Assembly (NCBI RefSeq): GCF_044324785.1
Contig: NZ_CP172127.1
DNA length: 64,000 nt
Source: Escherichia coli
GTDB taxonomy: Bacteria > Pseudomonadota > Gammaproteobacteria > Enterobacterales > Enterobacteriaceae
Strand: one strand, 5' to 3'
Part shown: piece after piece, positions 21,561-23,839 of the stretch
Position numbering within the stretch: position 1 is the stretch's first letter
Layout: every line of letters begins with the position of its first letter
Translations under genes and position numbers: made by a program
Notes under the pieces: model-generated
Database searches by the model: none
Seen by the model: the letters and a program-made list of their open reading frames with translations, nothing else
Told to the model about the DNA's origin: nothing

Positions 21561-21641
21561 CTCCTTTGATTATGGTTAAATAGTCGAAATTTTCACCACT
21601 TCCCTTGTGGATATATTTACATATAAAAGGTGGATTTGCCC

Positions 21642-22547
21642 CTATATTTCCAGACACCTGTTATCACTTAACCCATTACTGGCCTGCTGCCGCAGATATT
21701 CCCGTGGCGAGCGATAACCCAGTGCACTATGCGGATGCCATTCGTTATAATGCTCGAACGCCTCTGCAAGGTTCTTTGCTGCCGTTAACCCGTCTGGTTT
21801 AGGCATGATACTGATGTAGTCACGCTTTATCGTTTTCACGAAGCTCTCTGCTATGCCGTTACTCTCCGGACTCCGCACCGCCGTGTTCTTCGGTTCAAGC
21901 CCCAACATCCGGGCAAACTGCCGTGTTTCATTAGCCCGGTAGCATGAACCATTATCCGTCAGCCACTCTACTGGAGACGCCGGAAGCTCGTTGCCGAAGC
22001 GGCGTTCCACCGCTCCCAGCATGACGTCCTGTACTGTTTCACTGTCGAAGCCGCCCGTAGTGACTGCCCAGTGCAGTGCCTCACGGTCACAGCAGTCCAG
22101 CGCGAACGTGACTCGCAGTTTTTCTCCGTTATCACAGCGGAACTCGAACCCGTCAGAGCACCATCGTTGATTGCTTTCTTTCACGGCCACTTTGCCAGTA
22201 TGTGCCCGTTTCGATGGCGGTACAGCGGTTTTTCGCTCAAGCAACAGCGCATTCTGGCGCATGATCCGGTAAACACGTTTGGCATTGATCGCAGGCATAC
22301 CATCAAGTTCGGCCTGTCTGCGAAGCAGCGCCCATACCCGACGATAACCATACGTGGGCAGCTCTCCGATAACATGGTGTATACGGAGAAGCACATCCGT
22401 ATCATCTGAGTGACGGCTGCGGCGACCATCTTTCCAGTCATCGGTTCGTCTGAGAATTACGTGCAACTGCGCACGCGACACCCGGAGACAACGGCTGACT
22501 AAGCTTACTCCCCATCCCCGGGCAATAAGGGCGCGTGCGCTATCCAC
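21642..22547 (-). CDS. insD: IS2 transposase OrfB (InsD)
   Basis: 301-aa translation [34 protein letters not shown]... with DDE integrase fold region. Confidence 0.9.
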
Positions 22548-22870
22548 TTTTTTGCACGCCCGTATTCAACGGCTTCTTTAAGGAGTTCATTTTCCATCGT
22601 TTTTTTGCCGAGCAGGCGCTGGAGTTCTTTAATCTGCTTCATGGCAGCAGCAAGTTCAGAGGCAGGAACGACCTGCTCTCCTGCGGCCACAGCAGTAAGA
22701 CTTCCCTCCTGGTATTGCTTGCGCCAGAGAAATAACTGGCTGGCTGCCACACCGTGTTGCCGGGCAACAAGGGAGACCGTCATTCCCGGTTCAAAACTCT
22801 GCTGAACAATAGCGATCTTTTCCTGTGTAGTACGCCGTCTGCGTTTCTCCGGTCCTAAGACATCAATCAT
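22505..22870 (-). CDS. insC: IS2 transposase OrfA (InsC)
   Basis: 121-aa translation [41 protein letters not shown]; overlaps insD as expected for programmed frameshifting. Confidence 0.9.
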
Positions 22871-23839
22871 CTGCTCTCCAATGACTAGTCTAAAAACTAG
22901 TATTAAGACTATCACTTATTTAAGTGATATTGGTTGTCTGGAGATTCAGGGGGCCAGTCTAAAAGGTAACTAGTCACTAACCAACACAAATCTTTTTGAA
23001 GATAGATGGGGGGTGTTGAACGGTTTTTAAATGATTTCTTTGATTTTTAACAGCAATAAGGAGCATTTTTAATGAAATTAGACGTTGATAATAACTTTTT
23101 GAGCAATCTTTACATATCATGGTAGCCTTCTATGCTGTTTTTCCAACTAAAAGATTGGCACATTTATCCGCTGGTAGTGGCGTTTTTTCGCCGCCAGCGC
23201 CTCTCTGGTTCCATTCCTTACATCTGTTCAAATTCAGCAACCCTTGCCGCGATCTTGCCGTTATCGAGAAGCTCTTTCGCTTTTCGGTTAATACTATCGG
23301 TCTTCATATTGCCAGCAGCATACGCCATCCGATAATTTCGATGCTACGCGCGCGTACTTGTCGCAAAATATCAGGCAAAGGCCAGATTCAGAACGTCGTG
23401 ATAACCACCAGCACAACATGAGAGGTCATGTAACGCGATTTATCACACCAGATACATGTGATTGGTGTACCCGCATAAAACATTGTCATAGCGCGTCCTG
23501 TGCGCATATAGGCCGATAATCAACACATCACCACCACTCTGTCTCATGTAGAGAACAGTTTTATGGTATCCCCCGCCATCGTGTGTGTACTGGTCGGACG
23601 CAGTTGCAAAACTTTTTGCAACTGATGCCCCTCGCGCGCGTACTGGTCACGAAATTGGTGTTTTGCTGTGGCAGTGATATCAGAAAAATCTTCCTGTTTC
23701 ACATAAAGCGGATATGCGCGTACTGTAACGGCCCCATCAACGGGGATCGGATTTGAAATCCCGACCCAAGCTATGTACCAAATGCCATGTCTTGGATATA
23801 TGATGATTGCCATTCTAAACAACGCTAAAGGGGGTTGGT

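Follow-up and report, generated by a model that had tools for sequence, protein, structure and literature searches.

The locus studied here belongs to a 64,000-nucleotide stretch of an Escherichia coli genome (contig NZ_CP172127.1), hereafter called the window. Positions 19168-39846 correspond to an integrase-bearing, phage-derived island located at the 3' end of yicC, measuring 20.7 kb with the insertion sequence IS2 that it carries and about 19.3 kb without it. This island is missing from E. coli K-12 between yicC and dinD, and is present in strain N12 without IS2. An imperfect repeat of the end of yicC (TTATTCGAT..TGGATCTG) marks its boundaries. Its genes encode a PerC-family regulator, an ImmA/IrrE-type protein (Peptidase_M78), a zinc-ribbon/Toprim/DUF927 primase and a tyrosine integrase (38405-39742, minus strand). 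Genes for P22-like DNA ejection proteins, whose N12 annotation is phage DNA ejection/injection, are also found, together with Ash and AntA/B-like genes. Overall, the island resembles a degraded prophage or a satellite-like element.

The IS2 copy occupies positions 21631-22961, and its genes are on the minus strand. It is inserted in an AT-rich intergenic spacer (35% GC within 50 bp on either side, vs 48.6% for the whole window). To its left, positions 21072-21560 (minus strand) carry an ImmA/IrrE-family gene (Pfam Peptidase_M78, PF06114, E = 9.6e-20; PADLOC CapP-like, E = 4.9e-25), the N12 homologue of which is also annotated ImmA/IrrE. The likely ATG start codon of this gene is at 21554 and is preceded by AAGGAGG. 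IS2 lies 76 bp upstream of this start codon and has the same direction of transcription as the gene. To the right of IS2, a stretch of about 870 bp (22967-23840) contains no credible open reading frame and has no annotation in N12. The one similarity found for it is a faint 90-nucleotide, 79% match to cyanophage terminase small-subunit genes, and this stretch is probably a decayed gene remnant.

Several observations concern the rest of the window. The dinD gene has a 544-bp internal deletion when compared with N12 (positions 18047-18591 of the N12 locus, L003), at window positions 18721-18724, with a 4-bp overlap at the junction. The length of this deletion is not a multiple of three and dinD is therefore a pseudogene here. 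Between pyrE and slmA, a retron Ec107-like element of about 1.3 kb (42262-43560) stands in place of about 36 bp of the intergenic DNA of K-12. Its reverse transcriptase reading frame (42546-43517, plus strand) has a YCDD motif (PADLOC RT_Ec107-like, E = 5.5e-132; Pfam RVT_1). Retron-Eco5 (Ec107) was described at pyrE/slmA, where it replaces a 34-bp intergenic palindrome, and both the location and the motif of the element seen here fit this retron (PMC6868368). A 288-aa reading frame located between gltS and recG (9098-9964, plus strand) is absent from K-12 and N12 and has no match in Pfam or PADLOC. Finally, two regions have no K-12 counterpart. In positions 1-4388, a PTS-fructose/aldolase/ROK/lyxose-isomerase cluster replaces yicI-yicJ, as in N12, and in positions 53389-58818, the waa LPS-core cluster is divergent in its central part.

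Structure and coding capacity of the IS2 copy

As a reference, we used IS2A of E. coli K-12 MG1655 (NC_000913, 381260-382590, annotated 'insertion sequence:IS2A'). The reverse complement of the window copy aligns with it from the first to the last base, without gaps and with 56 mismatches (95.8% identity). The outermost 87 nucleotides at the IRL end and 26 nucleotides at the IRR end are identical to those of K-12, and a single substitution is found within IRR, at IS position 1305. The imperfect inverted repeat at the right end (IRR, 41 bp) spans 21631-21671 and on the minus strand ends with ...GGGGCAAATCCA-3', whereas the left one (IRL, 42 bp) spans 22920-22961 and begins with 5'-TAGACTGGCCCC on the same strand. 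The termini specific to IS2, that is an IRL starting from TAGACTGG and an IRR ending with AAATCCA, are therefore both present as in K-12, with the IRR end at 21631 and the IRL end at 22961. Inverted-repeat arms were detected at 21639-21671 and 22920-22952 (79% complementary), which fits the published lengths of 41 bp for IRR and 42 bp for IRL (PMC3299598).

On the plus strand, with slashes marking the boundaries, the left junction reads ...catataAAAGG/TGGATTTGCCCC... (in a longer reading, ...CATATAAAAGG/TGGATTTGCCCCTATATTTCC...) and the right junction reads ...GGGGCCAGTCTA/AAAGG/taactag... (...CAGGGGGCCAGTCTA/AAAGG/TAACTAGTC...). IS2 is thus flanked by two direct copies of AAAGG, at 21626-21630 and 22962-22966, the motif being found once in the empty allele. 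From the base composition of the window, the probability of a 5-bp match by chance at two given positions is about 0.001. It should be noted that the last IS2 base before the right AAAGG is also an A, so that the repeat can be read as 6 bp (AAAAGG). The terminus of the reference IS2 (TAGACT...) nevertheless fixes the length of the duplication at 5 bp. An earlier note, made from the letters of the window, had described an IS2 of exactly 1331 bp with recognisable ends and AAAGG on both sides. Its size and termini are borne out by the gapless alignment, and its flanks by the junctions; the span given in that note, 21626-22966, comprises both AAAGG copies, since IS2 itself extends from 21631 to 22961.

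The earlier note had also considered insC and insD to be intact, and the profile searches bear this out. The insC gene (orfA; 22505-22870, minus strand) encodes a 121-aa protein corresponding to the repressor and to the N-terminal part of the transposase; it matches NCBIfam NF006928 'IS2 repressor TnpA' over its entire length (1-121/121, E = 2.9e-83). The insD gene (orfB; 21642-22547, minus strand) encodes the 301-aa DDE catalytic part of the transposase and matches NF006918 'IS2 transposase TnpB' (1-301/301, E = 3.4e-213) as well as NF033516 transpos_IS3. The scores of both genes with the IS2 profiles exceed the curated cut-offs. Despite 20 nucleotide differences in its coding region, InsC is 100% identical to the K-12 protein, so that all of the insC differences are synonymous. 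In InsD, 11 of the 301 residues are changed, none of them in the motifs WCSD(132)GF, WLTD(198)NGS and NGIAE(234)SF. As in the IS3 family generally, D132, D198 and E234 are presumably the catalytic residues; 35 residues separate the second D from the E.

The A6G motif (AAAAAAG) at 22547-22553 (minus strand), where a programmed -1 frameshift leads from orfA to orfB, is located at IS positions 409-415, as in K-12. The role of -1 frameshifting at this motif in IS2 has been described (PMC3299598). Compared with K-12, one synonymous G-to-A change gives insC an A7 run upstream of A6G (window 22600-22606, IS positions 356-362). This run was considered as an alternative frameshift site and ruled out: the orfB frame does not open before IS position 397, and a ribosome slipping upstream of this position would yield no transposase.

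A megablast search of 5,426 complete E. coli genomes returned full-length, 100% identical copies from numerous chromosomes and plasmids; a listed record has up to 15 IS2 places. In this search, 4,059 of the 5,426 genomes contain an IS2 place that matches 80% or more of the query length, and the number of places per genome in E. coli has a median of 4 and a maximum of 41. By its sequence, the window copy is the common 'wild' IS2 variant and not the K-12 one. It is full-length and apparently transposition-competent, and the finding of the very same sequence at many sites speaks for the mobility of this variant.

Empty alleles in the E. coli population

The same 5,426 genomes, which do not include the source genome, were used to characterize the site of insertion. 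The empty site was rebuilt in silico by deleting IS2 and one AAAGG, and a 3-kb query was searched. All 3000 bases were recovered in one piece in 7 genomes (99.3-99.4% identity), and many further genomes span the junction. With a 400-bp query centred on the junction, the locus is found in 68 of the 5,426 genomes; in all of them it aligns over 400/400 positions, uninterrupted and with at least 99% identity. On the other hand, none of the 5,426 genomes covers both junctions when IS2 with 500 bp of each flank is used as the query. In strain N12, alignment of the empty allele (...TTTACATATAAAAGGTAACTAGTCAC...) with both junctions places a unique AAAGG exactly at the point where IS2 is inserted.

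In these IS-free alleles, the flanks are contiguous and colinear with the window, with a single AAAGG. In the case of N12, colinearity extends on both sides of IS2 (18721-21631 and 22960-35030, 99.1-99.6% identity). Moreover, the window contains no second IS2 copy that could have served as a recombination partner. Since the flanks are colinear with the empty alleles, the locus results from a simple insertion and not from recombination between IS copies, as the earlier note had proposed; comparison with the empty alleles establishes a simple insertion with a 5-bp duplication and excludes a recombinant or rearranged IS.

The insertion is a derived state, private to the source genome. Because it is private and absent from all of the 68 alleles bearing the locus, it can be considered as recent. 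The same view had been put forward from the intact ends, genes and duplication. These are however weak clocks, as an intact 5-bp duplication and intact reading frames would survive for a very long time; nor can the divergence of the window copy date the insertion, since this copy is 100% identical to copies found elsewhere. It is therefore mainly the population data, with 0 of 5,426 genomes occupied and 68 of 68 locus-bearing genomes empty, that uphold a relatively recent event. The recipient, which had been referred to simply as 'the element', is the integrase island of about 19.3 kb at the 3' end of yicC.

Neighbouring genes and alternative readings

Disruption of a gene by IS2 was considered and rejected, as just one 25-codon reading frame with a TTG start spans the empty site. 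A regulatory effect on the peptidase gene is possible, with nothing supporting it. In a scan for consensus matches comparing the occupied and empty alleles, no hybrid promoter was found across the junctions between IS2 and its flanks; the promoter-like sites are alike in both alleles, and no native promoter of the peptidase gene appears lost.

In strains CE20, SW07164 and CS5L, other IS2 insertions are found in the same segment of the island, which separates perC from the ejection-protein genes. All three are independent of the window copy and have its orientation. In CE20 (locus L004, 4001-5331), IS2 lies within an Abi-family gene and is flanked by a CCAAA duplication. In SW07164 (L007, 3501-4831), the duplication is GCGTA. 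In CS5L (L008, 3501-4833), it is CCACC, within a homologue of a 147-aa reading frame, and the site corresponds to window positions 20465-20469. Regional targeting of IS2 was examined as an explanation and set aside, as three further insertions are close to the copy-number expectation and a shared orientation has a 1/8 probability by chance; this gives no significant evidence. The slot itself varies between strains. It contains an Abi-family gene in CE20 (L004, 3174-5472) and CS5L (L008, 5070-6047), and the ImmA/IrrE peptidase gene with a 125-aa membrane-protein gene in the window (20691-21560) and N12. This suggests a variable, possibly defence, cargo position.

Taken together, the data are best explained by a single transposition of a full-length IS2 into an AT-rich spacer of the phage-derived island integrated at yicC, with no credible gene interrupted. 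We assign this reading a probability of about 0.97. A different history, in which homologous recombination between copies brought in or reshuffled IS2, or in which IS2 marks the endpoint of a deletion or an inversion, the AAAGG pair being coincidental, could be imagined because the multicopy state of IS2 in E. coli (median 4, up to 41) makes recombination between IS copies generally common. This history has a negligible probability and is effectively refuted by the empty-site alleles, with their contiguous flanks and exactly one AAAGG; on either side of IS2, the window is colinear with both N12 and K-12, it lacks a second IS2, and the coincidence would have a probability of about 0.001. It might also be argued that the insertion is old or ancestral and that the 68 empty alleles arose by precise excision or by recombinational replacement, given that the duplication and the reading frames alone provide no date and that no identical island exists in the collection (best match 99.3-99.6%). 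Precise excision of IS3-family elements is however rare, and an ancestral insertion is hard to reconcile with 68 of 68 alleles being empty in diverse hosts and strains, with an insertion common to no other genome (0 of 5,426), and with 100% identity to copies located elsewhere, which leaves no private decay. Such an origin is thus highly improbable. It is also very unlikely that the copy, intact in structure, has lost its function or is impaired, for instance by the IRR substitution at IS position 1305 or by the 11 substitutions in InsD. Indeed, although 56 positions distinguish it from the experimentally studied K-12 IS2, its exact sequence is present at many distinct sites, both chromosomal and plasmid-borne, and several times per genome, which requires recent mobility. 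Moreover, no insC difference changes the protein, and neither the DDE motifs nor the A6G site is altered.

There remains the question of the neutrality of the insertion. Read-through from IS2, or the loss of upstream regulatory DNA, might alter the expression of the operon encoding the peptidase and the 125-aa membrane protein, and the insertion might be retained for this reason. In favor of this idea, IS2 is located 76 bp upstream of the peptidase gene start in the same orientation, the scan found no terminator-like site within or after it, a rightward promoter-like site (21590-21617, plus strand) now reads into it, and three other strains carry an independent IS2 in the same cargo segment of about 2 kb. 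However, the sole promoter-like site directed toward the peptidase gene (21596 to 21569, minus strand) is kept unchanged on the side of the gene and no hybrid promoter was called across the junction, all these promoter calls being consensus matches only. Three insertions in about 550 island-bearing genomes are, in addition, close to the number of about 1.3 that we estimate from the IS2 copy number. A non-neutral insertion is therefore rather unlikely. One may go further and propose, from the four independent same-orientation insertions in the cargo segment (the window and three strains), that this leftmost segment with its ImmA- or Abi-type genes is a preferred IS2 target, or that insertions there are selected for switching candidate defence genes, the window copy re-wiring the peptidase operon. 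This proposal is improbable.

Proposed transposition pathway and relation to known IS2 copies

How the window copy reached its site can be approached through published work on K-12 IS2. Transposition of IS2 takes two steps. The donor end, IRR, is cleaved asymmetrically and joined beside IRL, giving a figure-of-eight and then a minicircle in which the abutted ends form the junction promoter Pjunc (PMC3299598). OrfAB, produced by -1 frameshifting at A6G, then cleaves both ends, which attack the target and generate direct repeats (PMC3299598). By analogy, it can be proposed that the IRR end of a donor copy was cleaved and joined next to IRL, leading to a figure-of-eight and to a minicircle. The OrfAB transposase resulting from the -1 frameshift at A6G would then have cut the abutted ends, which would have been inserted at staggered target positions 5 bp apart. 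Repair of the gaps would have produced the AAAGG duplication. The sequence elements needed for this pathway are all present in the window copy, and the spread of identical IS2 copies to many sites would give it indirect support. We infer this route for the window copy from the study of K-12 IS2 (PMC3299598).

The element itself is already known, and its site is new but unremarkable. Together with its empty allele, the private insertion can serve as a marker of the strain and of polarity in the evolution of the yicC island, and the island was not rearranged by recombination between IS copies. At most, IS2 may modulate the neighbouring ImmA/IrrE-type peptidase operon, and the insertion has little significance beyond annotation.

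By ISfinder convention, two copies belong to the same element if they share at least 95% nucleotide and/or at least 98% amino-acid identity. With 95.8% nucleotide identity to K-12 IS2A (100% for InsC and 96.3% for InsD), the window copy is an IS2 isoform by the nucleotide criterion. It shows all the defining features of IS2 that are open to a test at the level of sequence. Like K-12 IS2A, a member of the IS2 group of the IS3 family, it measures 1331 bp and aligns without gaps, with the same termini, an overlap of insC/orfA and insD/orfB at the A6G -1 site, a 100% identical InsC protein and a 5-bp target duplication, here AAAGG (once in the empty allele) and ATTAC around IS2A. It differs from it by 56 nucleotides, 11 of the 301 InsD residues, one substitution in IRR and the A7 run in insC. 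The insertions of CE20, SW07164 and CS5L resemble the window copy in their island segment, their orientation and their perfect 5-bp duplication. They differ by their sites and duplications and in that genes are interrupted (Abi-family, hypothetical), whereas the window copy is intergenic. The closest relationship is with the non-K-12 variant of natural isolates, exemplified by the copy of strain SMS-3-5 (NC_010498, 413249-414579, annotated 'IS3 family transposase'). This copy, also of 1331 bp, is 100% identical to that of the window, so that the two differ in insertion site only.
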